A stretch of DNA of 64,000 nucleotides from Protoeuglena noctilucae (Eukaryota), in NCBI GenBank assembly GCA_958009085.1, contig OY253681.1, positions 806,001 through 870,000 of the forward strand, in the 5' to 3' direction. The translations under genes were made by a program, and so were the position numbers. Positions within the stretch are counted from its first letter, which is position 1. Each line of letters starts with the position of its first letter. The notes below the pieces were generated by a model. It did no database searches. It was not told the origin of the DNA and saw only the letters and a program-made list of their open reading frames with translations. Below, piece by piece: positions 13,636 to 64,000 of the stretch.

Positions 13636-16345
13636 ATGGTGGGCCTTGCCACGCAAGGGAGCGCAGTGTCCGCGCGTCCCGCGCCCCCCGCGCCGCGCTG
13701 CGTGTGCAATGCAGCATTCGGTATCCCCGGCGCCAGTCACGCGCATCGGAGGCGGGCGCTGCGCTCCGCTCGGGACAAAGGTCCGCAGCAGTGGGCTTGG
13801 TCCCCCGCCGGGACCCCGGGCGGGGCATCCGGCGGCCATGCGCCCGTGAGAGACATGCGTTGCTATGCGATAAAGAGCAAGCAGCAGCCCAAGTACGCCT
13901 GCTCCAACTGTGGCCGGCGGTATTTCCAGGTGCGCGTTTGCCTTTGCAAAGCTCCCAGGCGACCCGATCCGCGCAGCCGCGGTCCAATTCCGCTTCTCCT
14001 CGATCCGCAGCATCAAGGTCAGTGCGACGAGTGCGAGCAGTGGGGAACTGTCGAGGAGGCGTTGCCGGAGGAGTCGGAAGGCCGCGGGGGCGGGGGAGCG
14101 GGCAATCGCGCTGCGATGCGCGTGCGGATGAGCACCGCGACCGCCGCGCTGTCTCTGGACGAAGATGAAGACGGCGCGAGCGCAGGCGCGGGCGGTCGGG
14201 CCGGCAACGGCCGCGCGTGGCTGCAGGGTACGGGGCGCGTGCTGAGCTTGAGTGCGGTGTCCGCCACGGCGCGCCCCGCCCGCCGCCTGTCGCTGCCGGG
14301 CGCGGTGGGCGCCGAGGTGGGCCGCGTGCTGGGCGGCGGCGTGGTCCCTGGGGCCTGCGTGTTGATCGGGGGCGACCCGGGAGTGGGCAAGTCGACGTTG
14401 TTGATGCAAGTGGCGGATTTGGTGGCGGGAGTGCCTGGCGATGAGGCCGCGGAGGTGCTGCGGTGCCGGCCCGACAGCCCCGTGTTGTACGTGGTGAGGG
14501 GCTTTTATGTCATGGTGGCATGAGTGGGTGAAGGAGGTGTCGGTGTGTGGCGCTGTGCGTAGTTGTCGCAATAGCGTCTAATGCTGTGCTGTCTTATCAG
14601 GTGCCTCAGCTATCACCCGCACCTTCCCCCTTCTCCTTTCCGTACTCAGAGCGGGGAGGAGAGCGCCGAGCAGATCACCGCCCGGGCCGAGCGCATGGGC
14701 GTGACGCGCGCCTCATCCATCGCCCTCCTCTGCGAGACGGACATGGATGTCGTCCTATCCGCCATGGCATCCCTGCGCCCCCGCTGCGTTATCGTCGACA
14801 GTATCCAGACCATGTATCTGGAGGAGGCGGGGGCGTTTGCGGGGTCCACCACGCAGATACGCGAGTGTGCCAGGGCAGCCAATCGAGTGGCCAAGGAGAC
14901 GGGGGCGCCGGTGTTTCTGGTCGGACACGTGACGAAGGCGAGTGGGGTGGGCGATGGGGTGGATGGGGAAGTGGGCATGGACATTAACCCTCACTGCCAC
15001 CCCTATCACCACCCCCAGTGCCACCCTCACTTCCACCCCCACTACCACCCTCACTGCCACCCTCACTGTCAACCCCACTACCACCCCCACTGCCACCCAG
15101 GCCGGTGAGATTGCGGGCCCTAAGGTCCTGGAACACATGGTGGATGCCGTGGTGTACGTGGAGGGAGAGCGCAACGGCCAGCACCGCGTGTTGCGCACCA
15201 TCAAAAACCGATTCGGTTCCACCGACGAAGTCGCACTATTCGACATGGCTCCCGAGGGACTGCGAGCCGTACCTAATCCCAGCGAGGCTCTGCTGCGCAA
15301 CCGCAAGGCGGGGCTGGCGGAGGGGAAGGGCATTGGGAGCGTGGTGGCGGTGGCGTGCGGGGGCCGGCCGATGTTGGTGGAGATACAGGCACTGGCCACG
15401 CCGGTGCTGGACGCGGGGCAGCCCAGCCACACCTATGTGACGGGTGAGAGGGGGGGGGGGGGGGGGGGGGGGTGAGGGGGTGAAGCAGTGGTGTGGTGGG
15501 GTGTTGGTGATCAGAAGGGAGGGTGTGAGGGTGTGTGCCTGCCTGTTCCCGTCCCTCACCCCATCGCTCACTCCACCCATTCCCCTCATTCCACCCCCAC
15601 CCACCCATCTCCATCCCCTCTCCTTTCCACCCCCAGGCCTGGACGCCCGCCGCCTGTACCTCACACCATCCCCCATTCCACCCCATCCATCTCCCACCCA
15701 CCCCCCTCATCCCACCCCCAGGCCTGGACGCCCGCCGCCTGTACCTCATCCTGCAAGTCCTGCAGAAGCACGCGAGGGTCAAGGCGTTCGGCAGAGACGT
15801 GACGGTCAACGTCGTCGGTGGTTACGACTTCCGTGGCGATCCCTCGTCTGATCTGCCATTGGCGGTCGCGGTGACTTCGTCATTGTATGACAGACCCGTG
15901 GGGCACGAGGTGGCGTGCGTGGGGGGGGTGGGGCTCGCGGGGGAGATACGGGCCGTGCCGGCACTCGCCAGGCGCATCGGTGAGTGGGATGGGGGTGGAG
16001 GTGTGGGTGCGGGTGTGTGGGTGGGTGGGTGTGATGTCATTGTTGTGGGCTTGCAATTGTTCGGTTGTGTTACTACAGGATAGATCGAGTACCCAACACT
16101 CTATCATTGTATTATTGTATTGCCGTAGAATCACTCACTCAATCTTTCATTCTCCCCCCATCGCAGCGGAGGCGGATCGCATGGGCCTTCGTCGCATCAT
16201 CGTCCCCAAGGCGGGTTTCTCTGAGGAAGCGGCGAGGGGTGTGAGGGGGCAGGTGATCCCGGTCAGCAACATACGGCAGGCACTGCAAGCGGCGCTGGGG
16301 GGTGGGGAGGGGGGGGGGGGGTGGAGGGGGAGTGAGGGGGGATAG
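13636..16345 (+). CDS. radA: DNA repair protein RadA/Sms, probably organelle-targeted, multi-exon; start approximate
   Basis: Zn finger YACSNCG...GQCDEC.QWGT; Walker [52 protein letters not shown]; Lon-like C-terminus. Confidence 0.93.
14994..15098 (+). repeat. Degenerate 12-bp tandem repeat (cactgccacccc-like) in the C-rich 3' half of a RadA intron
   Basis: Reads as HCHP-HYHP-QCHP... in the shadow frame; lies in intron 14938-15100. Confidence 0.8.
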
Positions 16346-16530
16346 GGAAGGGGTGCTAGGATGGGTGGGAAGAGAGCGTTGGGTTTCTGATTTAAACACT
16401 GCTTGTGCGTTCAAATAAGGATTTGCGTTGAAGTGGCACGAGCGAGACGATCAGTTAAGAAAAGGACAGGTCCTACCACCCCTCTCGCATCCCACCCCAC
16501 CCCCACTCTGTGTCTGTCTGTCTCAGTTCC

Positions 16531-18174
16531 TCAGTGTTTCGGCCTCCTTGGCTTCGCCGTGTCCCTGGGCATCCCCTTCCCCTTCCCCTTCCCCTTCTTT
16601 GGCTTCAGTGACCACTTGGACGCATCTGCCTGGAGCCTAGCATACTTCTTCTTCCTGAGAAGCACGATAAGCGATGGGGAGTCAGCAATTGTCATGGTAG
16701 CAACTATCACGGTTGCTGTTATTGCTTGCCTGTACTCATCAAGTGGCACGTTCTCATGCACAAAACACCACCCCTCGCCTGTACTGTGCGATGGATGGGT
16801 CGTGCAGGATCTCCTCGGCCAGCGTCCTCTTCCGCTCCTTCTTGGCCATCCTCGCCGAGTGGAACTCCGCGCTGCCCTCCACCACCGTGCCCATCTGGAA
16901 GAACTTGGGGAGCTGAGGGGAGGGGGGAGAGGAGAGGAGTGGGTTGATGATGAATGGTGTGCACAGCACAATGCACCGGCGTGGAAAACGTCGTGGTGAT
17001 GAAGCGCTGCGAGCAGGAGTGACACTGTCACGTCTCCCCCATGCCATCAATCATCACCCCATCTCCAATTACCACTCGCCTTGGTGTCGTCGTGGGACTT
17101 GTAGAACCGCTTGGCGTCGAACGTGCCGCGCAGCTTCAGCACCCGCAGGTCCGTCTTGAGCTCCGGGGTCATCCGGGGCGCGGGGAGGTCAAACCACTTC
17201 GATCCCAGCGTCTCCGGGGCGTCACGCTTCGCCTGCCGGCGCTCCGCCCGGCCGTCCCGCGACCCCAACACCGCCCGCTTGCTCAGCCCACGCTCCTTCC
17301 CGCCCGCGCCGCGCGCCACAAGCGCCTCCCGCGCGGCGCTCGCTCTCTTTAACGCCCCGCGATCCTCCGCGCCGCCCAGCTCCGGCTCCCAGCGCAGCAG
17401 CCCTTCGTCCTCCATGCCACCTCCGCCCCCGCCTTTGCCGCCGAGCCGCAGCACCTCCCCCGGCTGCCCGTTCCCGCCTAGTATCCCCGCCATGCTCGTT
17501 GCCAATGCTCCCAACGCCTCCTCGTCCGACTCGTCCCAATCGCTGCCGGAATTGTCGACATTGTCGTCATCGCCGTCGCCGGCCCCGCTGGGACCCGGCG
17601 CGTCTTCCGCAGAGTCCGCTGCGCTTTTATCAAGTTCTTTTACTGGTGCTTCTTCTATCGCCGCCCCCTTGGCCCTTCCCCGCGCGGTACCGGGGCGGGC
17701 CGCCCTGGGTGTGCGCCCGCCAGCCGCCCGGGGCTCCGCGTCCCCTGCGCGCAGCGCGATGCGCCGTGCGTCTCCGCCATGTGAATATATGACATATAAG
17801 GCATCAGACAGCGCCCGCATCTGCATCAAATAGCCACTCGCCTTCCGATGCGGCCTCGTCCTCCGGGACCGCCTCGAGCGGGCGTGTGGCCGGAGCCTGG
17901 GCCCCGCGCAGCCGCGTGGAGGTTCGCCTCGTCAGTGTCGGCGTCTTTTCTTGCTTGCTCGCGGCCTTTTTGGTCCTGAGAGCGGCGCGGGAGCGACGCC
18001 TGTTTGCGTCTGCAGTCGACTTCAGGCCCGCGGAAAGAACCCTGAGCTTTGCTAAGGCCGCATCCTGGCGCACCTTCGCAAAGTGGACGTCGCGTCATCG
18101 TGCCCGGTCCCCGCGGTGTCCGAGACGTCGGAGGCCGACGCCCCCGCGCTGCTCATGGAACGCGTCAGCACCAT
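16531..18174 (-). CDS. FCF2: Fcf2/DNTTIP2 family pre-rRNA processing protein, multi-exon
   Basis: TLGSKWFDLPAPRMTPELKTDLRVLKLRGTFDAKRFYK | LPKFFQMGTVVEGSAEFHSARMAKKERKRTLAEEIL. GC donors at 17841, 17079 and 16778. Confidence 0.85.
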
Positions 18175-18656
18175 AGCGAACCCCAGCGTCTAATAGCGAA
18201 TGCGGGGTCTCCGCAGCGCAACTGATGATATATAATATGCGCAGAGGTAAAGATATGCAAAGGATAGGACTACCACAGCGCGCCCGTCACTGCGACGGCC
18301 TCGATGCTTTGGGGAGGCGAACTGTGCGGCTTGTGATGAAACAACGGGCCGAGACACCGCTGCCGCGAAGATGAGGTTTGGAAGAAGGCGTTGGGGGCGT
18401 TAACAGGCTCGCGAAGCTCCTTCCAGCGCCCTTAGCGCGCTGACACCTGACGGGGCGTGGCCAGAGGACTTGTTTCAGCTGCAGAGAACACGAATCTGAG
18501 TGCTGGCGTCACGCTGGGCAAAAGACCACATTCAGCGAATCCCTGCTGTCTTGGGAACGCCAGCAGGCATCGCGTACTGCGAGTTGGCTGGCGCTCAAGA
18601 CGAACAGAGCCCGTGCAGTCCAAGGGAGGCCCCCGCTCCTCGTGCCGCATCCGCGC

Positions 18657-21600
18657 ATGGTCAAATCCGCCGTCAGGGTCGTGCTGCGCACCAGGCCCAC
18701 CGCACACTTCAATGCGGACGCCATCAAGGTGACCTGCGCTGCACACAGCGTCGTCGTTCGTTTCCTCGCGCCGAGAAGGACCCCGGCCGCTTGGTGTGTT
18801 TCGCACGTCATGGTTGGAGGGAGAGTAGCTCACATGCGCGACCTGGTTGGCAAAGGAGCGGCGGGCGCTGCGCGCGGGGCTCGCGTCGCCCGCATCGATG
18901 CATGTTGGTCCCCCCAACGTGCCCTGTGGCCCCGCAGATCAGCCCGGGCGGCGACGAAGTGGAGCTGAAGATCAGTAGATCTCACGTAAACACGAGCGCC
19001 GGTGAGCGGCCCTCTGTCGCGCTTGCTCGGCGCTGCCCGACGCTGTTGTGCATCCTCCCGCGCGATTTCGCGCCCTCCCCGCCCGCTTGTCCAGATACCG
19101 CGGAGCGCTATCGCTTCCGCTTCGACGGCGTGCTGCACGAGGCGACCCAGGAGGATGTCTTCTCGGTGTGCGCGGAGGACACGATTGACGCCTTCATGCA
19201 GGGCTTCAACGCCACCGTCCTGTGCTACGGGTGCGCGTTGGGGATGCCAATAGCTACATTGAGAGTGTCTTTATCTGCACATGTGGCTGTACCTGTCGTT
19301 GTGTCCAGGACAGGCACACAAAATCGCATTCACAGTATCCAATTCGCATTCCGCGCGCAGGCAGACGGGCGCCGGCAAGACGTACACGATGCTCGGTGGC
19401 CGCGACAGCTACAAATCCCGCGGCCTCGTCCCGCGCTGCATCTCCCGCGTTTTCGAGGAGATACGCCGCTCCCCCGACCTCACGCGCACCGTCCGGATGT
19501 CTTACGTCGAGATTTACAACGAGCACATCTACGATTTACTGAACCCTGCGCAGGTGAGGTTGCTGGGGCTCTGCGGTGGAAGATCTTGCGAGCAGCACGT
19601 GCGCACGTCACGTTTCGCAACAAGCCGCGCCATGGAAGGGCCAGGGTTTCTTATAGTTCGCATAATCGAACTCACTCGAGCGTTTATCGTACATCCCGCA
19701 GGACCCCGGTGCGATTCAGATCGCGGACGGCCCCCGGGGCTCGGTGCTGGTGCGGGGGGTGTCGTGCCCCGTGGTGATGACGGAGCAGGACGCCCTGCAG
19801 CTCATGTTCGAGGCAAGTCGGTGGTTAGTGATGTGGAAAATAACTGTGCAATATCATTCTTGCAGGATGCTCGCGCTGTGCAGCTCGTGTGTTGCCGGGT
19901 GTCGTGACACGCGCATCCCCCAGCCCCCCTCCCCAATCGCTATATCGTGCTGTCTCGATCGTGCCACAGGGAGAGGAGAACCGCGCGATCGCCGAGCACC
20001 AGCTGAACACGATGTCGTCCCGCTCCCACGCCGTGGTGACGCTCTACCTGGAGACCAGGCGATCGCCCGTCGACCCCCAGAGCATCACCTCCAAGATGCA
20101 TTTAATTGACTTGGCGGGATCCGAGGTAAGAGATGGCATCTCACTGATACTGTCACTGATTCATGGCAGTGATGGGAGAGATGCACCTGATCGACCTCGC
20201 GGGGTCCGAGGTGAGACGTGGCATGTACATGGCATGTCACTAACAGTGATATTGAACCATCACCGACGGTGCTTATTGCCGGTACGATTACAGCCAGCCT
20301 GACAGTGTTAACAAACACCACCCCTGTCCCCCCTTTACCCCCCGCAGCGTCTTCGCAAGACCAAGTCGAGCGGCACGGTGGCCAAGGAGGCGACGTTCAT
20401 CAACAAGTCGCTGTCCTTCTTGGAGCAGGTGGTGGTGGCGCTGGGGGATCGAACCCGCGACCACGTGCCGTACCGGTCCTCCAAGCTCACCCACATGCTC
20501 AAAGACTCCCTGGGGGGGAACTCCAAGACGCTGGTAAGTGAGAGGGAGAGATGGTTGGTGTGACGGTGCTTGGGTGTGACCACCTTTTCCATGCTGTGAC
20601 GTTTCACATCCTCTCACTCTCACTCTCAATCCCACTCTCACCCTCTCACTGTCACTGTCACTCTCTCTTTCACTCACTCTCGTCTCTCATCTTTCATCTC
20701 CCCTCCCCAGATGGTGGCCAACGTGTGGGGCGACCCCGACCACCTGGACGAGACATTGAGCACCTGTCGGTTCGCCCAGCGGATGATGCGAGTGTCGTGT
20801 GACGTGGTGCAGAACGTGGCGGAGGACACGACCGCGCTGGCCAGGGCACTGCAGGCGCAAGTGGCGCAGGTGAGAGGGATGAGGGGTAGTGATAAGTGTA
20901 ACCAGTGATGGGCACTAGCGAGGGCACTGCAGGCGCAAGTGGCGCAGGTGAGGGGGGTTGGGAGTGTACCATTAATTGTTATCATATATCCATTTATTAA
21001 CAACATGTCCTGTGACTCGCAGCTCAAAGAGGAGCTGGCCATGTACGACGCCATGAGCAACCGTGCAGGCGTCACCTACGACCCCTACACCGCCGATCAG
21101 AAGCAGCAGCTCAAAGCGCAGGTGCTGGAGTTCTTTACCAACACCAATGCAGACGTATCTATGGGGTCCATCGAGCCACTTCAGTTCCTGTCCGTGCGTC
21201 ACATGACGGAGACGCTGCTGGTGTGCCGGGAGCTGTACCAGGAAGCGAGGGGGGGAAGGGGAGAGGTGAAGGGGGTGGGTTGAGAGGGGCACTGATGATG
21301 GCAGAGATCGCAGGGCGCATCAAGCCTTTCATTACAACGTGTTACATCACGCTTTCATGCCATTGCAGGGACCTGTGGGGGTGGGTGCAGCGACAGTGGG
21401 GAGCTCAGACAGAGCCCCAGCATCAAACAGTCCATTAAGAAACAACCAGGACGGCGATGGGGGTGATGAGGGCGATGGGGATGGCGACAGGGCAGAGGGG
21501 GCGACGTTGGAGAGGAGCGGGGGTGGGGAGGGAGAGGGTGTGGATGCGAGGGGTGGCGGAGAGGGGGAGGAGAGTGGGGAGGGGTCCGTGGATGGGCGCA

Positions 21601-23066
21601 TGGTGGCACCGGCGGAGTCAAGGCCGGCGCAGGCGAGCAGTGGGGGGATGCTGGGAGTGTGAGCGGGGGTTGGTGGGAGTGTAAGCAAAGGACAGCTGGG
21701 TGGGCCAATGTCATTCCCAACACCACCATCCCCACTGCCACCCCACACTCCTCACCATCTTACCCCTCCCACCCCTCACCGACCACCCCTCCCACCAACC
21801 CCCCCCCCCTCCCCGCAGCCCGGCCCCCGCCCCTCCCGCGCGGTCGCCTTTGAGGAGTTCTCCCGGGGCCCAGGCGCCGAGCTGTCCCTCGCACTGCAGC
21901 ACAACAAGGCAGCGCTGCGCGACTGCAAGACTGCGGCGAAGGCGGCGGGGATGCGTGTGAACGAGGCTAAGAGGGCAATCGACGCTTGCAAGGCTAGAGT
22001 GGAGGAGCTGAGGGGGGCGAGGGGGGACAAGGGGGAGGGGGACGGGGAGGGGGAGGGTGAGGACTAGGAAGGGTGGTGGGTAGAGGTGGTGGGTGGGGCA
22101 AGTGGGGCAAGTGCAGGTTGAGGGATGGGCGAGGGTTGGGATGCATGCATGTAATGTGACAATGATGATTTGATTAGCTGACAGATGAGGATGCCCCGTT
22201 TCTATCTGACTCCCCATCACTCTCACTCTCACTCTCACTAATGTGACCTCTGCACCCCCCCCAGCGTCGGTGATGGGGGAGGACGAATACCGTGCTCTGG
22301 TGGAGCTGCGTGACATGAAGGCGGCTTACAAAGCACGTTTCCAGGAGATGCAGTCGGCGAAGGCGGAGGCCGAGTACGTGGGGAAGCTCGCGGAGCAGTG
22401 CACCAAGGAGCTGATTCTGGCATTCGACGCGTGGTTTCTGGCGACGTACGGTCCCGAGCCAGAAACGGCCAATGCGAGTCCCGGGGATGGCAGCGGGGAC
22501 GAGGGGAATTGGGTGGTGCCGGGGACGGGAACGGCGGTGCGGCTGGGGATGGGAGCGGGCGGGGTGACGGGAGGGGTGGCGTCGGTCACGATGTCATCGG
22601 GGGGTAGCGGGCGGGGCGAGGGAGAGGAGCGGGGGAGCGAGGGGGGTGCTGGGACGGCTGGGAGAAGCGAGACGGGCGGAGGGCGGGGGGCAGCGGCGTT
22701 GCGGGGGCGGGGGCGGGGGGCGGGGGTGACGGGGGTGACGGGGGGCGCGAGTGCGGGTGCGGGTGGGACGGGGGTGAAGCGAGGGACACCCAAGAAAGCC
22801 AAGGGGGCGGAGGTGGCTGTGCCGGAAGACGAGAAGGCGAGAGATATGGGTTTTATCATGTGTACATACAGGGTTGTGCTATGCACATGGCCAGTTGTTC
22901 GATGGTCGTAAGTATGTGATGTGATACTGACATTCTATCGTTGCATTTCTGTGTTATTCAGGACGACCCCGAGGCCCAGGGCTTCTGGAATGCGCGCAAG
23001 CAGCTGCAGCGCAAGATGGAGGCGGGGGCCGTGCAGTTCCACAAGGGGAACCGACACTGGGGGTGA
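18657..23066 (+). CDS. KIF9: Kinesin-9 family motor (KIF9/Chlamydomonas KLP1-like), about 13 exons
   Basis: MVKSAVRVVLRTRPT; YG|QTGAGKTYTM; SYVEIYNE; NTMSSRSH; LIDLAGSE|R; INKSLSFLEQVVVAL; HVPYRSSKLTHMLKDSLGGN; ETLSTCRFAQRM; LKEELAMYD. Confidence 0.92.
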
Positions 23067-23222
23067 AAGGAGAGCGACAGTGGGGTGATACTTTTAACTA
23101 AGTGTTGACAGTAGACAGTTGCTCCCGTGTGGCGACACGGAGTGGACGTGACAGCTCATCGATTGTTGAATCGTGCTTTTTCAATCGCACCACATCGGCT
23201 CATTCAACACCTGTCCATTCAT

Positions 23223-24339
23223 CTACAGTGGCACCCGCACCATGATCTCGTTGGCCCTGGTCTTGAGGGAGAAGAGCGGCCCGTACTGCAGCACCTGGTA
23301 CTGCCCCGCCTGCGCCTCCTCTGCCAACCGCAGCCCCGCCGACTCCACCGCACGCACCAGGCGCGCCCTGGCAGACTCTGCGACACACGGTGGGGAGCAC
23401 TACAATAGATGACGATGCAACTTGTACAACACTGTTGTTCCTGCCACCCTTGTACATTTGTCACGTTCCCCTCCACCGCCACTGCCCGCTCATCTTAACG
23501 CCTTGTTCCCCACTACCTCCGATCTCCCCCACCTCACCTGCCACCCCCTGCGTCACATTCCCCTCCACCACCGCCACCGCCACCGCGCACCCCCCCAGCA
23601 CCTCCAGCCGCACCCCGTCCGCCCCTTGAGGCGCCGGCGGCTGACCCAGCTCCCGGAAACCCCCGTCTGGCGATGGGACGACCGATGGCACGAACACAGA
23701 CATGGTCTTCTGCATATACATGCGCGATACAAAGTCTGATTGGACCAAGAAGCGACGACGGGACAACATGGGATCTGAAAGCAGCCCAGCCCAGCCTATT
23801 CCAGCACACCACATGCACGTGCACAAACATCAACCACCCGTAACCAACCCGCTCACCTCCAGGTCCCCCTTCCCGCCAGGCCCGGGCCGGATGGTGAGGA
23901 ACACCGGCTGCGTCTGCACCAGCTTGATGCCCTCAGCGTTCGCGCCCCCTAGGTACTCTCCCAGCGCCAGGAAGCCCTCGTCGCGCTTTTCGTAGGCGAC
24001 CGACGCGCATATGAAGGGCGGGTAGAATCGGAGCTGGAATCCTTCCGACTCCCGCACCACTTCGCACCTCGGCTGCACCGCCTCCCCGCGCTCTGCGTGC
24101 GGGGACGATTCCAGGATAGCGCAAGGTAGCAGATGCAATGTATGAGGTATTTCGCAGGTTCATATCATACACTGCGGACCTGTGCCGGGGTACGCGGGCT
24201 GCGCAGAGCGGCCAAACAAGTTTCCGATGTGCGCGACCAGGCGGTCGCCGCGCCTGGGCTGCGGCCCCAGTCGCAGGGCGCGTCTTCTGTGCTGGGACGC
24301 GATGGCCCTGTCGAAAGCGCAGCTGAGGGTGGGTGGCAT
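23223..24339 (-). CDS. SOUL/heme-binding family protein with a putative transit peptide, multi-exon
   Basis: QPRCEVVRESEGFQLRFYPP; GFLALGEYLGGANAEG.KL.QTQPV; KTMSVFVP; QYGPLFSLKTRANEIMV. Confidence 0.75.
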
Positions 24340-24751
24340 GGTTGGAAACGGATTGCAAAGGGTCAAGGGGCTGTGCAAGCCAGGCGATTTCAGAGAAGGT
24401 GTTTGCTGCGAGGCTCCGCTCATAAGTGCATCGTCAGGCGACGAAGTGGGAGGTCGTTGGGAAAAGCGTGGCTAGGCAATTGCTCAGAAACGCCGTTGCA
24501 TTCAGGTCTGGCAGGGCAACCCCGGCCAACTGAGGCTTTCCCTGCGCCCTAACCCCGCAGCGCGCCAGTACCTCGTAATCCATCGACCGTGATCCTGTGC
24601 CTCCACGCCCGGCGCACAAGATCGTGGCAAACAGGCAAAGAAAACCTTCCGTCGCGCACAGGAATCCCTCCCCCGCCGCCCTCGGAATCCCGGGATAGGA
24701 TCCGGGCGCTTGTCTGCGTTACATCTCCAGAACAGAAGCGAAGGAGAGAAT

Positions 24752-38588: not shown

Positions 38589-38762
38589 GGTGCAGCGGGA
38601 GGGTGGGGGGATGGGGCCACAGTGGCTCTTAGAGTTGCGGGTGCAGTGAGATGGGGCGGCGGTGGCGCTGTGACTGGTTGGTAACTGTTTGGTTCAGCGA
38701 GTTACAATTTGAATCCCCGTCTATAAGGTCTAAAAAGTAGTACTACTATGCAGCGAGTCACA

Positions 38763-52769: not shown

Positions 52770-54274
52770 ATGCTCGGGGCCCGTCTGTCGCTGCTGCCGC
52801 AGAAGATCGGTGTCCGTGAGTCGGGGGCGTCTCGATGCGTCGCTGCGATTTCTCCCTTCGCGGTCGCGTATCGCGATTCGTCCGGCGCGCGGTGCCTACG
52901 AGCTTACATCGTCCCCGCGCCCTAGGCCACTTCCTTCCCTCCCGCGCAGGCGTCCCCGCGCGTCCATCCAGCCGCGTCGTCAGGATGGCGTCGCTCCCTG
53001 AACTCACGATCTGGGTGAAAGGCAATCCGAGCAAGGGCGAGCGCGGAGACTGCCCCTTCAGCCACAAGGCGCTGCTGTCGCTCGCGAACAAGGGCGTGCA
53101 GTATCGCGAGGTCTATCTCGATCTGAACGCGAAGCCCGAGGTGCGTGATGCGAATATCAAGCCATCGGCTCTCCCCCGGGCCCGCTCTAGCCCATCTCGT
53201 CGCGCCTCACCTCACCTCGCTGCGCTCATCACCTCATCGCCCGTGAGTCTGAGGCTGTGTGCGAGAGAATGAGAATGACAGTAAAGATAAGAGTGTAAGT
53301 GCCCCGCAGTGGTACGCCGCGACGATCAACGCCAAGGGCTCCGTGCCTACGCTCATCGTGGGCGGACCCGTGGACGCCGAGGGTCGCCCCGCGGACGGCT
53401 TCTCCGGCGAGCTGATCGGCGACTCGGGTCTGGTGGTGGAGTGGGCGGAGCGGGAGGTGCCCGTGCCACCGCTGCAGCCGCGGAGCGATGAAGAGGCGAA
53501 GCTGGGGGAGGGGTTTATGGGGGCTTTCAGGGACTTCCTGCTGTGCAAGGACGGGGAGGTGGAGGAGAAGGCGAGGGGGAGGCGATGGGGGGGAGTGTGG
53601 GGTGGTTGTTTTAATTTGTCGTTGGATCGGCGCACCGGCCCTCGTTCGCATCACGCGCCCATCTCACCCAACTCATCTTACCCTAGCTCACCACGCCATC
53701 GCCCACCCCACCCACATACCCACCCACACACCCACTCAACCCATCTCCCCTTTGCCCCAGAAATCCGCATTCATCAGTCAGCTCCAGTCCCTGGAGTCCT
53801 TCCTCTCCACCCACGACGGCCCCTTCTTGGGCGGCGACATGATGCGGCAGACAGACTGCCGCCTCGCGCCCCAGCTCTACCACTCCATCGTGGCACTGAA
53901 AGAGTTCCGGGGATTCGATGTGCTGTCTCAATTCCCTCTGCTGACCGAGTACTTCCAGGCGGTGAGGGGCTGGGGGGAGATGTATGGGGTGACGCATGGG
54001 GTGATGTGGGGAATGGGGTGACATGAGCTGTGCACCTACCGCACCTGCTACCGCCGCTCCCATCGCCATGCTACCACTCCCTGCACCCACTGCACCCGCT
54101 ACCGCTCACCTCCCTTGCCACTGCCCCTCTCACTTCTCTCCGTATGTCATCTCTTATTCGTCGTCTTGGTCATCGCAGGTGCAAGGCACGGATGCCTGGC
54201 ACAAGACGCACTACACGCCGGAGGTGATGGTGGCGGGGTGGAGGCCCAAGGTGGAGGCGGCGAGGAAGGCGTGA
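52770..54274 (+). CDS. DHAR: Dehydroascorbate reductase, with a short N-terminal extension, 5 exons
   Basis: IWVKG...GDCPFSHKALLSL..K; KPE|W; GSVP; IGDS; GPFLGG; DCRLAPQLYH; VMVAGWRPKV. Confidence 0.92.
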
Positions 54275-54890
54275 GGGGGGTGGGAGAGGGTGGGGGTTGA
54301 GGGAGATGGGGGTGGTTGGGAGGCAGCCAGGAAGGCCTGAGGGGGGATGGTATGGGAGGGCTGGGTGTGGGCGAGGGTGGCGTGGGAGGGGAATGGCGAG
54401 GGTGGCAGGGAGGATGTGGCTTTGTGGTGGAGGCGGTCAGGAGGGCGTGAGGGGGATGGTATGGGAGGGGGGGTGGATGAGAGATGGGTGAGGGTGGGGG
54501 TGGCTGGGAGATGAGCGAGGGTGGCATGTGAGGGTGGTAAAAGGTGTTGCTGTCGGTGGCAGGGGTGGGGAAGTTAAGATGCAATAGCAGCACTGGCGAT
54601 GGGCACTCCAGAGCGCTGGGTATGGCTGCCAGGGTCACATCATAGCATTTGCACATAGCACACGAGCAACATTGAACCGGCCCTCTTTCAGCTCAGCATC
54701 TTGCTTACAACCATTGACGACTCGCCATTCACCCATCCAATTATCGAGCCTCAGCAAGCCCCGAGCTGTCATGCAATGCCGCAACTGCACAACACCGCAA
54801 CCACCACGCAAGCCGCCACCGCCATGCACAGCACCGCCCTCATACGCGCACGTGTGTTTGAAACTCCGCATGCGTTTTTCAAACTTCCCC

Positions 54891-57800
54891 TCACACGTTC
54901 TCCCGTATGAGCAGCGGCGCCCCCTCGCATCCCCGGCTGTTGTCCACGAAGGACAGCTCCCACATCTCGATGCCCGCCGGCCGCAGGGCCGCCTCAATGC
55001 GACGCAGCGCCTGGGGGGGGGTGAGGGTGTGGTAGAGAGAGTGTGTGGTAGAGATGAGATTGAGAGTGGCAGAGGGGGAGAGAGTGTGGCATAGATGAGG
55101 GTGGAAGAGGGGAGAGTGGCAGAGGGGAGGGAGTGGCAGTGGTGAGAGTGGCAGAGTGGGAGAGGGGAGAGTGAGAGTGGCTGAGAGGGGAATGTGTAAG
55201 AGGGGAGAGTGGCAGTGGCGAGAGTGGCAGAGAAACGGGAGATGGCGAGGGGCACAGACTCCCTCGTCACCACCAATCCCCCTCCCTCGTTACCACCAAT
55301 CTCCCTCCCCCCCTTTCCTCACAACCCACTACACCCTCACCTCCCCTCACCACCCCACCCCCCCCCGCCCCCACCCCTCCTGCTCACCTCCTCATCTTCC
55401 GGCCACTCCCCCGTCCTCGTCCCAATCACCGCCCCGCTGTAGCTGAGCCCAGCCGCGGGTGCCACTCCCTGGTAGTAGAAGACACCGAATGACAGGTCGT
55501 CGGCAGCGTCCAATATGCGCCAGTGCTCCGTGGACGTCACGCCGTTGTCTAACACGCTGCGGGGATGGGGGAGTGGGAGGGGGGTTGGTTATAGGGATGG
55601 AATGGTGATGGTGGTGTTAAAAGCACTGCAGTTGAGAAGCCCCTTGCCACCCCACACTCCACCCCCATCACCTTCACCACCACCCCCTCACCTGAACCAG
55701 AACGCCCCCGGCTCCTCCCCCCTGCGCACCCGGTAGTGCCTCCGACACCACACCTCGCGCCCATCCAACGTCTTCACCCGAAACACGGGGTCATACCACA
55801 GGGTCTTGCCCCCCCTCCCCCGATACCACAGCTGGTACTGGCATGGGAATTGATCGTATGCCGCGTTCTGCCCCGCGGCCACCCGCCAGCTCCAATCGAG
55901 GTCGCCGTTCGAATCCCGCAGATGTCCCAAAAAGATCGCCTCGGCGCTTTCGTGCGTGAGGGGCTGCCCCCGCCAATGGGAGAAAGGGCGCACGGCCGGC
56001 AGCGTGGGTATCGATGCCGATTGGTCCATGCAGTTGTGCTTTTGGAGCACACAGAGGGAGAAGTCGCGGAATTGGGGGGACTCGAAAGACACGATGGCGC
56101 TGGGGGGGGATGGGTGGGAGGGGGGGGGGGATGAGGGTGTGGGGTGGTGTGGGGGGTGAGGAGAGGGGTGGGTGAGTGAGGGGTGAGTTGCTGGGAGTGT
56201 GGGTGGAGAGAATGGGTGATATTATCCTCACTCTCTTATCTCGTCCCCTCCCTCCATCCCCCCTCACCGGTACGCCCCACTGTCTCTCCCATCTCACCTT
56301 TTCTCTCTGATCTCACTTCCAATCCCCTAATTACCATCCCCCCTCACCGGTACGCCCCCACTTGGTCGTTCAGCCCCACGCGCTGCAGCTCATCCAATGC
56401 CTGCCGGCACGAGGGGTTGGCGAAACACGCTGCCACTTCTCTCGTGCAGTAGCGGAGCATGCGGAGGGTGCCTGAGGGAGACATGCCCTGCTTGGGAAGA
56501 AGGGGGACCTGAGAAGGGGGGGGTGAAGTTGGGTGAGTAGGGGTGAGAGGGGGTGAGTGGTGGGGGGGTGGTATGAGGTGGGGGACATGCCCTGCTTGGG
56601 GAGGAGGGGGACCTGGGGGTGGGGGGGGGGGGTTTAGTGGGTGAGAGGGGTGGTGAGAGGTGGGGGACATGCCCTGCTTGGGGAGCAGGGGGACCTGGGA
56701 GGGGGGGGATGGAAGGGGGACGGGTGAGTGAGAGGGTGATGGGTGGGTGGCGAAGGGGGTGGTGGTAAGGCGAGTGGTGGGCGTGGTGGTGCTTGCAAAC
56801 ACGTCGCCTCTGCCACCCCTCTCAGCCTTGCACGCACGCACGTTTCACACGCACCCCCCTCCCCCCCCCCACCACCCCCTTCACTCGCCCGCGTGACGTA
56901 TGCGTCCACCAGCACCAGCGTCAGAAACAGCCAGTCGTCAGAAGTGTCTCTCGCAGCCAGCTCCCGGCACACGTCCCTCGTCTCCCTGCCGGCCGCGCTT
57001 GCCCAGAACACGGGTCCGATCAGGGGCGTGCGGGAGAGGGCGCTCTCCCATCCGGCGACGGTGCGGTCGTCGCTGCCGCGGAAAGCGCCCAGTTGGTCAA
57101 GGGAGGAGGACTGCGGGTGGTGGGGTGTGGGGTGTGGGGTGTGGGGTGTGGGGTGTCGGGTGTGGGGTGTGGACTGCGGGGGTGGGGTGTGGGAGAGGGA
57201 GAGGGAGAGGGAGAGGTGTGAGAGTGAGAGTGGGACAGACAGTGACAGACAGTGAGAGATGGACATCGTCACTAAATGCACACTGCAGCCTCACCAGTGC
57301 GGGGCTGCATCTCAGGCACAGGCGCGTGGGGATGCGGCGGAGGGCATCCGCACGGGCACTGGCAGCGCGGCCGGCGAGTGCCTGAAACGCCGGGGAGGGG
57401 CCCTCGATGCCGACGCACAGGAGCACGTGGGCCGTCTGCGCCGCCTCCGCCAGCGCTGCGCCCTGGGGATGGCATGAAAGGTGGCGGGGCGTCCACAAGC
57501 GACAAATTAATTGCACCGCGTTCGCATCCCGATTGCGCGGTTGACTGCACCTTAATGTCGTGAAATACAAGTATCAATCACCTTCGCGTCGCCGGCTGTG
57601 AGGGAATCGTCCGCAAAGACGTCCACGGCGATGCGCGGGTCCGCCCACTGGATGCGCTTGGCCACGTGGCGCAGGACGCTCTCCCAGGGCGGGCCGAGGG
57701 GACTTGGGCCTTTCGACGCAGTGGGCGTGAGAATGAGCACCCTGCGCGGCGCACCGAATGCCGGATCGAACGAATGGCGGAGACCGGTAGTTGCAGCAGA

Positions 57801-58019
57801 GCAGCGGCCCCGCGCTCGCCTCGCTGACACTTGATCCGGGCGCGATCCTTCCGTTGTCGTCTCGACGACGCTCTCCGGCGCCCTGGTCGCGGATGGCGCG
57901 GCGACGCGCGCGCCGGGGCCGTGCCTCATGTTGCAATTGCAGGGCCGCAGCGCCCGCGATTCGAAGCCTCGACGCGGCGCCGCCAATCCCGCAAGCGCAC
58001 AAGACAGACCAGCTGCCAT
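54891..58019 (-). CDS. VDR: Violaxanthin de-epoxidase-related protein (VDR), multi-exon, transit peptide-like N-terminus
   Basis: CTREVAACFANPSCRQALD; NDQVGAYR|AIVSFES; FSLCVLQKHNC; WRVAAGQNAAYDQFPCQYQLWY; WYDPVFRVKTLDG; SVLDNGVTS.E.WRILD; WELSFVDN. Confidence 0.85.
55079..55232. repeat. Imperfect gagagtggcag tandem repeat in the last VDR intron
   Basis: Repeated gagagtg(t)ggcag/gagtggcagtgg units, pyrimidine-rich on the transcribed (-) strand. Confidence 0.7.
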
Positions 58020-58537
58020 CGCGCCCCCTATGTCCGTCTTATAGCGCGCACTCGCGCGGCTAGACTCTGCGGTAAGCCAGGGGCAGCAACGCGGGACGTA
58101 CTCGATAGAATAGACGATGCGAGGAGCTTGGTCTCAACCATTAGATGCACAGCAGCGATGCTCACTGTGCAATTGTCGTCGAGCTTATGTTCTAGGCCAA
58201 TTCTGGGACCGTTCCGACGCGCGCAAGAATGGGTGGCCTCTGACGGCAGCACTTCGCCCCGCGTCGACCTGAGAGCTTCTACATGTTTGCGATGCCGATT
58301 TTGTTGCGACGCAGCAGTCGTTCGCACTTCAAGGCAAGCCCATCGCAACCACACGCGAACAGCAGGGTCGCACACCCGCCCGAGCAGCCGGGCGGGCACA
58401 TCAGTTCGACCTTCGCAGTCACGACGTGCACTCCTAGTCGCTAGCTTACCGCGTGCCCTGTTCAATCGCCCTATTCTGAGCGCGAGCTCCGAGCGTGCCG
58501 CGCACCACTCCCTCCCCGCCTCGCCGAGCGTCCTGTT

Positions 58538-61500
58538 ATGGTCAAGGTCTGGGGCCCCGAGAGGTACGTGCCGCATGAGTGTGCTCGGTCGTCCCAACGC
58601 GGGACCCTCTGCGTCGTCTCGACTTCGGCTCGTGGTGGCAGGGACGCAGCGGCAGCGTTGCAGGTCCTCAGAGGTCCGAGAAGGCCGAAAGAGCGCTGCT
58701 TCCTATTCCTCGCAGTGACGATGACTCGGTCTCGTCGGGGTCGATCGTCGCGCAGGGCTATGGGGGCGCGGGAGGGCGAGCCGCGGGTCCAGCGGAGCTG
58801 GCGGGCCTGGACTTGGAGGTCCGGGACGCCGCGGAGGTGGAGCGACGAGTGATTGCGGAGCAGGAGGTGTTGCAGCTCGAGGCGGGCGTCGCGGCGGCGC
58901 CCAGGGAGGGTGCAGCTGCCCAAGGGGGGCCAGGATCGGACGACGCGGCCGCTGCGGGCGGGGACGCGGCCGCGAACGCTGCGCGACTGGCGGCGATCCA
59001 AGAGGAGATTGCCGCGCTGGAGGCGCTGAACGCGGACGGCGCCCCGGGCGTTTCCAAGGGCCGGCCGCATGGCAAGCGTGCGCGCCCTGCGGCCCCCGCG
59101 CCGGCCGGCCCCGTCTACACGGCGTCGCCGGGTCCGGACCCTTCTGCAGATGACCTGCAGCGGCGCCTTCGGGAGCAGCGCCTGGCGGATTTGCGCCAGG
59201 AGGCGGAGAAGTTACGCCACGCTGCGCTCGGGGGCCCTGGGCTATCGGCGGCCGATGCCTCGGGTTTAGCTGTATCGACGGAGGCGAACACGACGCGCCG
59301 GCGGGCGACGGGCAGCAGCTGGGGCGCGGTGGCGGGGGCATCGGCCGCAGCCCCCCGTCGCCAGAAACGCAAGAAGCACGTGGTGGTGGAGGACGCCGGG
59401 AGCTCCGAGGACGAGGGCGGGGCCGCTGCTTTGGCCGGCAGGCGAGGGGGAAAGAAGGGGGGGCTTTAGCAGGGCGATTGCCTTGACGCTCACCATCACT
59501 CGTCACTGGGTAGTGCTGTATAGGAAGGAGTCATTGCCACAATATAACACTCTTATGCTTTCATCCATCCCTTCTTCCTCGCCCGCTTGCTTCTCAGATC
59601 CGGCCCAGCCTTGGTGGAGACCACAAGGGACCGCCTGATCCGCACGGGCGTCATCACGCCTTTTGCGGGGGTGCAGGGATTTGAACACGGGGAGAGGGCG
59701 GGGGCCACCAATGGAACGCAGGAGACGGCGGGGGTGGCGGGGGCGGCGGGGGTGGCGGGGGTGGCTGGGGCGAGGGGTGCGGGGGCGGGGAGGGTGGCGG
59801 AGGGGCGGGGGCGGCGAGAGGTGCGTGGGTGGTGTTTGTGCTAACTTTGCTGGTGGCGATGCAAGTGGTATCGTCATTGTCACTTGATTGGGATATGCAT
59901 GACGTCTGCTAGCATGTCCAATCGCACCGCTGACTGTCGGCAAGCACTGCAACCCTTCCCTTGCCCATATCGCTCACAATACCCTGCACTGTCAATCAAT
60001 TCATGAAACTTTGATAACAACCGCAGACGCTCCACGACCGCCTCCGCCGCGCCGCCCGGGCCATCACGGCTGCGAGGGAGGCAGACGCGGATGCGAGGGC
60101 GGTGACGGGGACGTTTGACGATGCTGGGCCGACGGATGCGGATGGGTGGGGGGGTTATGATCACGGGCCGATACCCAGGGGGACGCCCAGCGTTCGATTC
60201 CACGAGTGAGTAGTGAGTGGGGATGTTGGTTGGTTGTTCATTGTGATATGTAGGTGTGGGAATGGGTGTGGGTTGTAGGTAACAGGAAGCATCGGTTGCA
60301 CCATCATCCATGCAGGAAGGGCAAGCCCTTGCGCCCGGTGTTAACCAGGGAGATGCGTACGATGCGCGTGGAGGTGACTGCGGGGAGGGGCCAAGGCAAG
60401 CGGAGGCGGAAGCGCGAGGCTGCGACTGGCGGGGGCGGCAAGGGCGGTGATGGGGATAGCATAAGAGAGCGTGGGGGTGGGAGGGGGGGCAGGGGGGGCG
60501 GGGGCGGTGGGGGCAGGGAGGGGAGTTCGAGTGATGTGGAGGTGGTGGGGGTGCGGGTGGGGGGTGGGGGTGAGGGAGGGGGTGGTGGTGCGGGTGGGGA
60601 GGGGTCAGTGGGAGTAGCTGGGGTGGGAGAGGGGAGAGCGGGGGGGAGTGGGAGGGTGGTGGAAGTGGGGACATCGGACAGTGATGGTGACGGGGGAGAG
60701 TCAAGTGAAGTGGGGTCGGAAGGGACGGGTGGGAGTGGAGGGGATATGGATGATGTGGGTGACGAGGATGGGGATGAGAGTGAAGACACGGAGAGCGATC
60801 CGGACGACCCATACGCGAGGTGTGTGATGGCTGGCTGGCTGATGTTGATTGGGATGGCTGCTAATATATGATGGCAATTGGGATGGTTGTTGCACTCATA
60901 CGCAAGTATCAAGCACCTGTGAGCACCTTTTGGACAATCCCAATCCATTGTTGCATGCGCGTACTCTCCCACTCACTCTCATGCGACTTCTCACTCTCAT
61001 GTGACTGTGCAGGGACGATGCGGTGGAGGCGGACTATGTGGCCAGGTGTCGGCGGGAGCTGAGGAGACAGGAAAGGGAAGAGGAAAGGAGGAGGCGGGAG
61101 AGGGAAGAGGGGAGGAGAAGGGGTGCGGGAAGGGGCAGTGGGGGTGGGGATGGTGGTAGGGATGGGGAGGATGGGGTGGGGGTGGGGGCGAGTGGAGCGA
61201 GTGGTGATGGTGCAGCGGGTGCGGGTGATGGTGGTGGTGGTGGAGAGGGCACGAGTGGGCGTGTAGATGGCAACAACAGTGCGGGTGTTGGCGATGGGTC
61301 CAACGGTGGCGTCGCCCCAGCTGATCCCGATCCCGACGTGACATTCGACGGTGGTCTCTGCGTTCCCCATAACATATGGTCCAGGATGTTTGATTATCAG
61401 CGCACGGGCCTGCAGTGGATGTGGGAGCTGCACACGCAGAGGGTGGGGGGCATCCTGGGGGACGAGATGGGGCTGGGGAAGGTGAGGGGGTGGGTGGGTC

Positions 61501-64000
61501 GGTGGATGGGTGGTGGTGGATGGGGTGGGGTAGCAACCATTCATTAACACCCCATCTTTCATCCCCATCTCTCATCGTCTCTACTCACCCATATGACAGC
61601 ATCTTCATTTTTCATTATCTCTCCTCCTTCACACCGCAGATGGTGCAATTGGTTGCTTCTCATCTCTAGCACTGCTCCCCCCCACCGCAGACGGTGCAGG
61701 TGGCCGCGTTCCTGGGCAGCCTCCACCACTCCGGCCTCTACCGCCCCAGCCTGGTGGTGGCCCCTGCCACCGTGCTGCGTCAGTGGATGAGAGAATTGCA
61801 TCGATGGTACCCGGTGTTCCGCGTCTACGTCATGCACGACTCGATGAGGACGACGGGGGAAGCGACCCGGTGAGTGATATTACTGATAGAGAGTGATGGT
61901 GACTGTCATGCACGACTCGATGAGAGCAAGCGGAGAAGCGAGCTGGTGAGGGATGGGAGATGAGGGAGATTGCGTGAGAGTGAGAGTGAGAGTGTGCGTG
62001 ATGCACGACTCGATGAGAGCGCAGCGCAGTTCATATCCGTTGGCCCCTCCCCTCTCCATCGCCACCCCACCCCACCCCACCCCATCCACCACCCAACCCC
62101 CCCATTCACAGCGAAGCCAAAGAGCGTCTGTTGAGAGACGTTCTGGCAGAGGATTCTGGCATAGTGATTACTACCTACGAGCACGTGAAGCTGTTCGCGG
62201 ACGTGCTGCTCCCCGTCAGCTGGGGCTACGTGGTGTTGGACGAGGGTCACAAGATTCGAAACCCCGACGCGGACGTCACCGTGGTGTGCAAGCAGATGCG
62301 CACGGTGCACAGGTGAGGGCGGAGATGAGAGGGGGCGACACCAGTCAAGTGCACACAGAGATGCTCTTTCACTCACCCTCAACCCCAACCACCCACCCTT
62401 CACCCCCAGGCTCCTCCTCTCCGGCTCCCCCATTCAAAATTCCCTGGTGGAGCTCTGGTCTCTGTTTGACTTCGTCTTCCCCGGCCGGCTGGGCACCCTA
62501 CCCGTGTTCACGCAGCAGTTCGTGGACGCCATACAGGCGAGGAGTGATTAGTTACTAAATAGTGACTATTATCGTTTATATTTACTACTGATTTGCGGGA
62601 TGAGATGGTAACGCTTGCACTCCTCACCACCTTAACCACCCCATCTCCCACCACCCCATCCCTCACCCCCCACCCCTACACACAGAGCGGCGGCTACGTC
62701 AATGCCTCCAAGCTGCAAGTGGCCACCGCCTATCGGTGCGCTGTGGTGCTGCGCGACCTCATCGCCCCCTACCTCTTACGGCGGCTCAAATCGGACGTGT
62801 CGCTGCAGCTGCCCGACAAGACGGAGCACGTGCTCTTCTGCCAGCTCACGCCGGAGCAGAGGGCGCAGTACCTGGGTGAGTTGGATAGCAGCGCTAGTAA
62901 TGGCGATGGCAGTGCTTGGGTGAGTTGAATAGCAGTGATGGCAATACATGGGTGAGACAGTAGCTACATCAACGGTGGCATTTACCACAGCCATCACCGT
63001 CACGCATGCATGTTCCATTATCTTCCCACCCCCCCCCCCCCCCCCCCCCCCAAGCGTACCTGGGCACCTCCGAGGTGGCCCGCATCGTGAGCGGGGAGCT
63101 GCACGCGCTGGCGGGCATCGGGGTGTTGCGCAAGATATGCAACCACCCCGACTTGCTGAGCCGGGTGTCGATGGCGGGGGAGGCTGCGTATGGGGACCCG
63201 GAGAGGTCGGGGAAGCTGAGGGTCACGGCGAGGGTGCTGCAGATGTGGGCGGAGCAGGGGCACAGGTGAGGGGTATGGGTGGGGGTTGGTGCGGTTGGGG
63301 TTGTGACATGAGGGGTGGGGGTGAGATGAGGGGTGTTGTAGATGTGAGCAGAACCTCAATGCATGCACTTACCAGGAAGTGCAAAATGCACAGACCCCAC
63401 CTCTCACTCCCCCTCTCCCCCCCCACCCACGCAGAGCTCTGGTCTTCACGCAGACGCAGCAGATGCTCGACATCTTGGAGAAGGCCACGCAGTCGCTGGG
63501 GCTGCGGTACATGCGCATGGACGGCAACACGGCGGTGCGCGTGCGGGCGAGGATGGTCGACGTGTTTAACAGCGATGAGAGCATGGCGGTGTTCCTGCTC
63601 ACCACGCGCGTGGGGGGGCTGGGGGTCAATCTCACAGGTGAGGGATGGAGAGATGCGGAGATTGTGTATGTATTACTATTGTTATGATTGATATGTTTGA
63701 TACTCGTTGCTGCGGATGGCATCAGATTGGCGGTACAGATTGACACAGCCGCACGAGTCAAGCGCACATTCGCTCTTTTTGCACATGGGACGACTCAAAT
63801 TCCACAACACCATTGTACTTTACGTGTCAGTACACTCTACATGATATGCTATTGTGATATCCCATATCTATCGCAGGTGCCGACCGTGTCCTGCTCTACG
63901 ACCCCGACTGGAACCCCATGACGGACGTGCAGGCGCGGGAGAGGGCGTGGCGCGTGGGGCAGAGGCGGCAGGTCACCATCTACCGACTCATCACGAGCGG
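58538..64000 (+). CDS. ERCC6: SNF2-family ATPase ERCC6/CSB/RAD26 (CHR8-like), multi-exon, runs off the 3' edge
   Basis: [131 protein letters not shown]. Confidence 0.94.

Follow-up and report, generated by a model that had tools for sequence, protein, structure and literature searches.

The DNA analysed here, hereafter the window, is a 64,000-nucleotide (nt) stretch of the Protoeuglena noctilucae genome (contig OY253681.1 of assembly GCA_958009085.1, positions 806,001 to 870,000). It holds densely packed, intron-rich eukaryotic genes, with a G+C content of 60-72 % across the window. The subject of this analysis is a set of short copies of exon-intron boundaries, which we call echoes, located mostly within the introns adjoining the boundaries that they resemble. 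Five genes carry such introns. Pfam and NCBIfam name them as a RadA/Sms homologue (TIGR00416; RadA), a KIF6/9-type kinesin (KIF9), a SOUL haem-binding protein, a violaxanthin de-epoxidase-related lipocalin (VDR) and an SNF2/CSB-type helicase (CSB). For one kinesin exon, the best named relatives belong to the green algae, e.g. a pedinophyte at 84 %. The window's own spliced proteins were absent from the protein collections searched: P0121 is an unspliced read-through open reading frame (ORF), and P0122, with 134 residues that are 100 % identical to one VDR exon, is not a spliced protein either.

Introns were delineated with a home-made three-periodic Markov/Viterbi gene model that admits GT-AG introns only and returned 69 introns of 50-700 nt. 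The model reproduced the three KIF9 junctions that homology indicates, and also an intron for which RNA contig X10 (record 3) shows a joint. Protein profiles and orthologues support the boundaries of the echo-bearing introns. In KIF9, the kinesin profile continues from positions 184-236, in the exon ending at 20125, to positions 237-299, in the exon starting at 20348, and two orthologues align (tblastn) across both echo introns. Positions 225-321 and 333-416 of TIGR00416 flank the RadA intron 15444-15721, the SNF2 profile is spread over four successive CSB exons (31-90, 96-155, 157-197 and 200-249), and the upstream exon of SOUL carries a Pfam match. Three of the six VDR orthologues listed (P0125, P0127 and P0128; best E=7e-11) align through VPLLPKQGMSPS, and the distance between two conserved blocks is 18-40 residues in five of the six, which fits the VDR gene structure given in an initial annotation of the window. 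The GT-AG-only model places the VDR acceptor 37 nt further in, so that the exon start would be intronic; the orthologue alignments speak against this placement. The VDR intron 56509-56888 on the minus strand is then probably a GC-AG intron. At the same intron, a GT donor 7 nt downstream combined with the acceptor 37 nt downstream would give a predicted in-frame isoform that is 30 nt shorter.

Echoes were detected with a local direct-repeat scan (offsets 12-400), a complexity-filtered version of it and a lower-threshold pass, and each was then read in the sequence. The initial annotation had described boundary copies in at least nine introns of the five genes, and every echo listed there was recovered by repeat scans and sequence reading (Table 1). 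All nine introns that it named hold a copy of their own exon-intron boundary that is 16-51 nt long and offset by 44-186 nt. The copies are direct, lie on the same strand and are found near the true junction, as in the boundary duplication of human F7 intron 7 (IVS7) discussed below. Donor-side echoes lie downstream of the true donor in KIF9 (two introns), SOUL, VDR and CSB (two introns), and acceptor-side echoes lie upstream of the true acceptor in RadA, VDR (two copies) and CSB. Splice motifs are largely kept, with an intact GT in consensus context in 7 of 10 5' echoes and a YAG in 4 of 5 3' echoes. Head-to-tail units are clear at 62865-62958 and 10049-10132; the former is an array of 2.5 units of 36-44 nt that starts in the exon, with the SNF2 profile contiguous over the junction. 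The other echoes comprise 16-51 nt of similarity within a period of 44-104 nt, and their spacers align weakly, with indels.

Table 1 Echoes, their source junctions and other local duplications in the window.
Feature	Position	Strand	Remarks
RadA true intron-exon junction, echo source	15712-15748	+	Exon start 15722; fits TIGR00416 contiguity
RadA 3' echo (10 nt intron + 27 nt exon)	15627-15663	+	In intron 15444-15721; 37/37 identical; offset 85
KIF9 exon end 1 (MHLIDLAGSE) with donor GTAAGA	20094-20139	+	Exon ends 20125; kinesin profile, tblastn
KIF9 echo 1 (KIF9-1)	20179-20224	+	36/46; offset 85; same ten codons, 7 synonymous differences; GTGAGA intact
KIF9 exon end 2 (ALARALQAQVAQ) with 5' splice site	20834-20878	+	Exon ends 20869; orthologues
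KIF9 echo 2 (KIF9-2)	20912-20956	+	20921-20956 vs 20843-20878, 35/36; offset 78
SOUL true exon end, echo source	23538-23569	-	Source stretch 23552-23569; sequence reading
SOUL decayed 5' echo	23460-23477	-	Intron 23378-23537; 17/18; offset 92; one synonymous difference
VDR 5' junction echo	56254-56278	-	Intron 56100-56347; 25/25 vs 56334-56358; offset 80
VDR true 3' junction and exon start (VPLLPKQGMSP)	56476-56522	-	Exon starts 56508; three orthologues align
VDR 3' echo 1	56580-56626	-	Offset 104; 3 synonymous differences in 33 exon-derived nt
VDR 3' echo 2	56662-56708	-	Offset 186; 3 synonymous differences; nearer echo 1 than exon
CSB decayed 3' echo	61632-61660	+	Intron 61482-61690; 61632-61647 vs 61683-61698, 15/16; offset 51
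CSB 5' echo 1 (source 61828-61848)	61904-61954	+	Offset 76; 20 nt identical; GTGAGG intact
CSB 5' echo 2 (source 61828-61848)	61997-62017	+	Offset 169; 20/21 identical; without splice site
CSB 5' junction with two further copies	62865-62958	+	62865-62891 vs 62909-62935 (offset 44); third GGGTGAG ~62945-62958
Copy of last 8 codons and stop, F-box/LRR gene	38623-38650	+	vs 38562-38589, 26/28; 61 nt downstream, 3' untranslated region
49-nt tandem duplication, SUMO-like gene	1582-1679	-	Intron-internal; 48/49; 32 nt upstream of 3' splice site
28-nt x3 tandem array	10049-10132	+	Starts 4 nt before 5' site of intron 10053-10254; weak junction match

The echoes differ in their state of preservation. 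KIF9-2 extends upstream by three further codons that differ at third positions only, all synonymously. In SOUL, the match is followed by a 5-nt indel and the GT has turned into GA. The two VDR 3' echoes match each other over 57 of 62 positions, compared with 33 of 36 between echo and exon. The CSB 3' echo shows, beyond the junction, two synonymous and four non-synonymous codon changes and a stop codon. Past its 20 identical nucleotides, CSB 5' echo 1 shows two synonymous and three non-synonymous codon changes; it has an AGA GC change in common with echo 2 that is absent from the exon. A copy beyond a stop codon at 38623, also reported in the initial annotation, was found as described, and both of its differences are non-synonymous in type.

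The echoes are real DNA and not an assembly artefact, because two independent contig sets reproduce the KIF9-1 pair and the spacers between exact repeats have full depth. Contigs were compared over 4500-24499 and derive from runs labelled as the organism (X1-X4) and from marine metagenomes (X5, X6); X3 is a culture run that may share a project with the assembly, and X5 belongs to a different study. The KIF9-1 exon end and its echo are bridged by an X3 contig (16310-20872, 4563 nt) and by an X5 contig (16372-20640, 4269 nt), in both cases with 0 differences and 0 gaps. Exact repeats of at least 31 nt (15627, 20843) break de Bruijn contigs, as expected. The corresponding spacer unitigs in X3 have depths of 107 (15634-15741) and 132 (20845-20950), with flanks at 104-112; this support for the RadA and KIF9-2 spacers comes from X3 alone. 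For 53500-63400, sampled 31-mers are present at 1.00-0.99 in X1-X4 (1.00 in X1) and at 0.91 and 0.90 in X5 and X6, respectively. The sampled natural population, as represented by the X5 contigs, is nearly identical to the reference: among the pieces listed, four letters differ in ~17 kb, all of them in 4500-6352, and none differs in the three listed pieces of 4.2-4.5 kb. Among the RNA contig matches listed (X9, X10), no joint falls at an echo intron, and the parts that these contigs leave uncovered carry no evidence.

Moreover, echoes are more frequent at junctions than expected by chance. For each junction, a 42-nt stretch was scored for similarity to the intron that it adjoins and to 12 others, which gave a null of 828 non-cognate comparisons per junction type, and used the 99th percentile as threshold. 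Own-intron matches at or above this threshold were obtained for 8 of 69 5' junctions and 5 of 69 3' junctions (13/138), compared with an expectation of ~0.7 per junction type and ~1.4 over the 138 junctions. Two of these 13 outliers are low-complexity matches, and the VDR acceptor echo escapes the count owing to the gene-model error mentioned above. Three weak new junction matches also came to light (10053, 31441 and 39134). A gapped version of the test with 60 nt of exon yielded 6/69 and 3/69 (9/138), and the rest of its cognate score distribution was unshifted (Mann-Whitney P=0.30 and 0.21; 69 introns). The idea that introns are made throughout of old junction copies was rejected on this basis. 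Exon-derived similarity within introns is detectable for recent copies only.

The initial annotation had pointed out that at 20181, 20912 and 56580/56662 the exon-derived differences are all synonymous, and we find the same: there are seven in 30 nt of KIF9-1, three in 36 nt of KIF9-2 and three in 33 nt of each VDR echo. We refer to these echoes as clean. The five decayed echoes (three in CSB, the stop-codon copy and SOUL) show 6 synonymous and 10 non-synonymous codon changes, near the outcome of a neutral simulation. The argument of the initial annotation, that a neutrally decaying intronic copy should accumulate non-synonymous changes freely, used too simple a null. Since the exon copy tolerates synonymous changes alone, about one third of the codon changes in a neutral echo pair should be synonymous, and not just a few. 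We therefore simulated two lineages, in which the exon copy changes synonymously only and the echo anywhere. Under this null, a purely synonymous set of differences has a probability of 1e-4 to 5.5e-4 in KIF9-1, ~0.06 in VDR and 0.07-0.10 in KIF9-2, so that KIF9-1 departs even from the proper expectation.

Within each pair, the differences run largely in one GC/AT direction (6/7, 3/3 and 2/3). At six of the seven KIF9-1 differences, a G/C of the echo stands against an A/T of the exon, and at all three VDR differences a C of the echoes stands against a T of the exon. The codon usage of the KIF9-1 echo lies at the 92nd percentile of 7757 ten-codon windows, whereas the working exon end falls into the lowest 5.4 % and includes TTA, which makes up 2 % of Leu codons; among the other 42 codons of this exon, two end in A/T. 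From these patterns it looks as if in KIF9-1 and VDR the working copy has changed and the silent copy has stayed untouched. CpG context was rejected as the cause of the KIF9-1 changes, two of seven being at CpG. RNA structure was likewise rejected as the reason for the recoded KIF9 exon end, whose folds are not better than shuffles (z = -1.67, -0.94, +0.59, -1.30). The stretch 20126-20210 (plus strand) of KIF9 begins with GT, ends with AG and contains a long imperfect inverted repeat (GCATCTC...GAGATGC); its fold is not better than that of shuffles (z = -1.3).

We consider the echoes to be scars of small local DNA duplications whose inner copies are silent and either decay or are re-homogenised, and give this reading a probability of roughly 0.6. 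The copies themselves, their presence in independent reads, their excess at junctions and the tandem-repeat background are observed, whereas we infer how the copies were duplicated, that the inner sites are silent and that gene conversion takes place. The underlying mechanism is most likely an ordinary mutational process that acts unusually often. A local duplication with an offset of 44-186 bp could arise by replication slippage or by break repair that fills staggered ends. Such repair often inserts filler between the two copies, and the setting would be introns packed with short tandem repeats. A tandem-repeat search of the 64-kb window gave 63 rows, most of which fall into intron tracts rich in G or C. 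The initial annotation had proposed slippage or template switching within such tracts, which agrees with this landscape, while the diverged allele that it invoked as donor has found no direct support. A duplication within an exon would destroy the gene and be lost by selection. One across an exon edge would leave the exon intact, with the extra copy becoming intron or 3' untranslated region. Junction-spanning copies would thus be the survivors among recognisable non-repetitive duplications.

According to the duplication model, the outermost splice site would stay in use and one intact exon would be retained, and it is because the outermost site remains the one used that the inner copy is taken to be silent. 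The inner copy may then decay or be partly re-homogenised by short gene conversion. Mosaic identity of this kind is seen in CSB-2, where 20 identical nucleotides are followed by 7 differences in 19, and in KIF9-2, where 36 near-identical nucleotides lie beside 3 differences in 9. The inner copy may also be duplicated anew, as in the three-copy families (VDR and CSB-2), whose echoes agree with each other beyond the exon. The same kind of event is found away from splice sites, namely in the intronic duplication at 1582 and the stop-codon copy at 38623. Synonymous-only differences would arise largely since the exon copy is confined to synonymous change. In the clean echoes the intron copy would be unchanged, and the residue is treated as a small-sample anomaly that stems mainly from one echo, KIF9-1.

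Several findings weigh against this interpretation. KIF9-1, with 7/7 synonymous differences, misfits neutral decay and is the only echo that is significant individually. Pooled over the eight differing echoes, the ratio of synonymous to non-synonymous changes is 17:10 against 9.3:18.3 expected (P=3e-4), or against 10.3:17.3 if G/C sites mutate 3x faster (P=1.7e-3). This becomes 12:10 against 7.7:14.2 when KIF9-1 is left out (P=0.036) and 9:10 against 6.2:12.8 when both KIF9 echoes are left out (P=0.12). Within the three clean echoes, differences affect 8 of the 37 sites in flanks of intron origin and 0 of the 63 strictly non-synonymous sites (P=2e-4, or 7e-4 with the flank rate halved, for a set of echoes chosen post hoc). 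At A/T sites of the KIF9-1 exon, all six that allow a synonymous AT-to-GC transition differ, compared with none of the ten others. Furthermore, the 8-mer AGTGATGG stands before four 5' echoes, where it is tentatively explained as a decayed copy of local donor context. Finally, the inner copies are only presumed to be silent, the intron count depends on the home-made GT-AG model, which misplaced at least one intron, and the data comprise one 64-kb window in which the echoes were grouped post hoc. The synonymous excess is a real but narrow anomaly, with one strong case and two weak ones. Chance on top of an imperfect mutation model was considered as another option for the synonymous-only residue.

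A process that preserves codons, in which junction copies are written from a diverged template during slipped break repair or are held by selection as splicing elements, is a doubtful alternative, but one that deserves some weight. In its narrower form, the clean echoes would have been copied from a diverged homologous template, i.e., an allele, a homeologue or a recent paralogue under protein constraint, during slipped recombination or template switching in break repair. Such an echo would be young and not yet decayed, and silent sites alone would set it apart from the resident exon. A diverged donor would account for the 0/63 strictly non-synonymous changes beside 13 synonymous differences and for the mosaic of KIF9-2, and by codon usage the KIF9-1 echo and exon seem to be different versions of one exon end. 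Against it, the environmental contigs are near-identical to the reference, without a single difference in the 4.3-kb KIF9 piece and without a visible diverged haplotype, and no contig that matches at 90 % identity or more with differences was found over 4500-24499. A metagenome scan for relatives of the KIF9 exon returned 34 loci, the best at 57 % amino-acid identity and none close enough to polarise the silent changes. Moreover, one-way GC/AT differences suit mutation of one copy better than two alleles that are both at codon-usage equilibrium, and a difference at 7 of the 11 silent sites would require very deep divergence, although the intron start agrees at 11 of 14 positions. We therefore regard a diverged template as unlikely. 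Selection on some echoes as RNA elements, be it as recursive AG/GT points, as decoy or back-up U1 or 3' sites, or as an alternative first exon in the case of KIF9-1, strikes us as quite improbable. If an echo were frozen at every base, the exon copy alone would change and the differences would be synonymous only, and the three clean echoes are in such a frozen state. The KIF9-1 echo begins with ATG, measures 30 nt in frame and has an intact donor. Each intact 5' echo recreates the AG/GT motif of recursive sites: these echoes end in ...AG or ...GG followed by GTGAG, e.g. GAG/GTGAGA at 20208-20216, although the motif alone does not show use. The frequent retention of GT and YAG noted above also speaks for selection. 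However, other echoes decay freely, the GT being lost in SOUL and in CSB echo 2, and the KIF9 region and both of its copies fold no better than shuffles. The selected alternative exon ends that the initial annotation had envisaged are not borne out, as 78, 51 and 186 are the only multiples of three among the 11 offsets, two of these run into a stop and the 186-nt extension alone is open. This open frame runs in VDR from the second echo through the intron into the exon (56476-56694, minus strand). The read-through ORF P0121 contains the 11-residue VDR peptide twice.

The arrangement of duplicate, filler and duplicate would also be expected if a mobile intron element, such as an introner or a small transposon, had left target-site duplications or excision footprints. 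AGTGATGG adjoins four donor-side echoes in two genes (20168, 20904, 61892 and 62934, plus strand), directly preceding each, and occurs seven times in the window compared with 2.5 expected. A related sequence, GATGGGAGAG, precedes the KIF9-1 echo and the VDR donor echo. Nevertheless, the motif resembles the local 5' splice-site context, whose hexamers are tenfold commoner in the first intron third, and duplicates of 25-46 nt far exceed usual target duplications. An all-against-all blastn of the 69 introns returned self-matches and one 18-nt CT-rich match between genes. As no family is common to different genes among these introns, the echoes are not introners, and a mobile element of any such kind is very unlikely. 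An artefact of assembly or haplotype merging would suit echoes that are short and lie beside low-complexity tracts, where assemblers err. Its probability is close to negligible, given the exact KIF9-1 pair in two independent de Bruijn contig sets from a culture run and a marine metagenome, the spacer unitigs between exact repeats that match flank depth, and the word share in X1 over 53500-63400.

A conceptual relative of local boundary duplication is the Rogers model, which Gao and Lynch reportedly discussed in 2009 and in which an intron is said to be gained when an exon segment that carries AGGT is duplicated in tandem. The likeness is that short genic tandem duplications with AG/GT are tolerated because splicing removes the extra copy. 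In that model, the new intron consists wholly of duplicated exon, whereas here existing introns gain a copy of their own boundary and no new intron position is seen. The echo introns are 153-380 nt long and far exceed their echoes; the remainder is unrelated to the exons, so they are not built from an AGGT-bounded duplicated segment. The intron gain suggested in the initial annotation is therefore not supported in the Rogers sense, and for the intron sliding suggested alongside it no shifted junction was found.

More generally, tandem duplication is described as a source of intron change (PMC3443670; Drosophila cases in PMC2891723). Among the closest published systems is a minisatellite in human F7 intron 7, a 37-bp variable number tandem repeat that begins with a unit lying across the exon 7-intron boundary and in which the inner donors are silent (Borensztajn et al. 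2006, PMC1557585). It shares with the echoes that an exon end is repeated, together with its donor, inside the intron in tandem; its inner donors are identical or near-identical, and the outermost one is used. F7 is, in that account, one locus with a regular head-to-tail array, whereas at least nine of ~69 introns are involved here in 64 kb. Unlike F7, the echoes of the window involve donors, acceptors and a stop codon, and most copies are split by an unrelated or decayed spacer. The initial annotation knew of no description of such copies; with F7 IVS7 (PMC1557585) a relative has been published, and the literature searched yielded no account of junction copies that are frequent and differ only synonymously.

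A marine green alga also provides a parallel for the layout. In transformants of Ostreococcus tauri, break-repair scars consist of direct target duplications on either side of fillers, which measure 55-83 bp and have an unknown origin (PMC8002553), which corresponds to the duplicate-filler arrangement seen here. The events in that report were induced by transformation, the single target duplication described measures 518 bp, and the mechanism is proposed there without proof (PMC8002553). Introner elements of Micromonas and other algae (PMC3879977; also PMC9860276, PMC4540971) resemble the echoes in that they, too, occur in marine algae and tie intron sequence to a duplication of exon sequence at the boundary (PMC3879977). 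As portrayed there, they form families across many introns with short target duplications, and no such family was found in the 69 introns of the window.

If the genome-wide rate equals that of the window, i.e., about one intron in seven, junction duplication would be a visible and datable source of mutations that affect the length of introns and the supply of spare splice sites. If it is common genome-wide, intron evolution would be observable as an ongoing process in a wild, abundant marine alga. Should the copies instead be written by a codon-preserving process, the introns of this alga would keep their exon ends in versions other than the working one, and junction duplication would be a main route of intron lengthening and splice-site turnover. 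Were the codon preservation of KIF9 general, a repair or selection process not yet described for introns would be suggested.

The introns of the window are strongly polar when read in sense direction. Over the 69 modelled introns, GC skew averages +0.26 across the first third (positive in 52/69) and -0.37 across the last third (negative in 56/69), and donor-like hexamers (GGTGAG and similar) occur at 0.60 per 100 nt in the first third and 0.06 in the last. Base pairing between the two intron halves is conceivable. G-rich, donor-like 5' ends together with C-rich, acceptor-like 3' ends are what repeated growth at the ends would be expected to produce.

Another repeat belongs to a separate category. 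The echo that the initial annotation had placed inside a coding sequence at 574 turned out to be an in-frame 54-nt irregularity of a WD40 array, i.e., a protein repeat. This array occupies positions 1-900 on the plus strand and is made of 126-nt units, with the extra in-frame 54-nt partial unit near 574-628.

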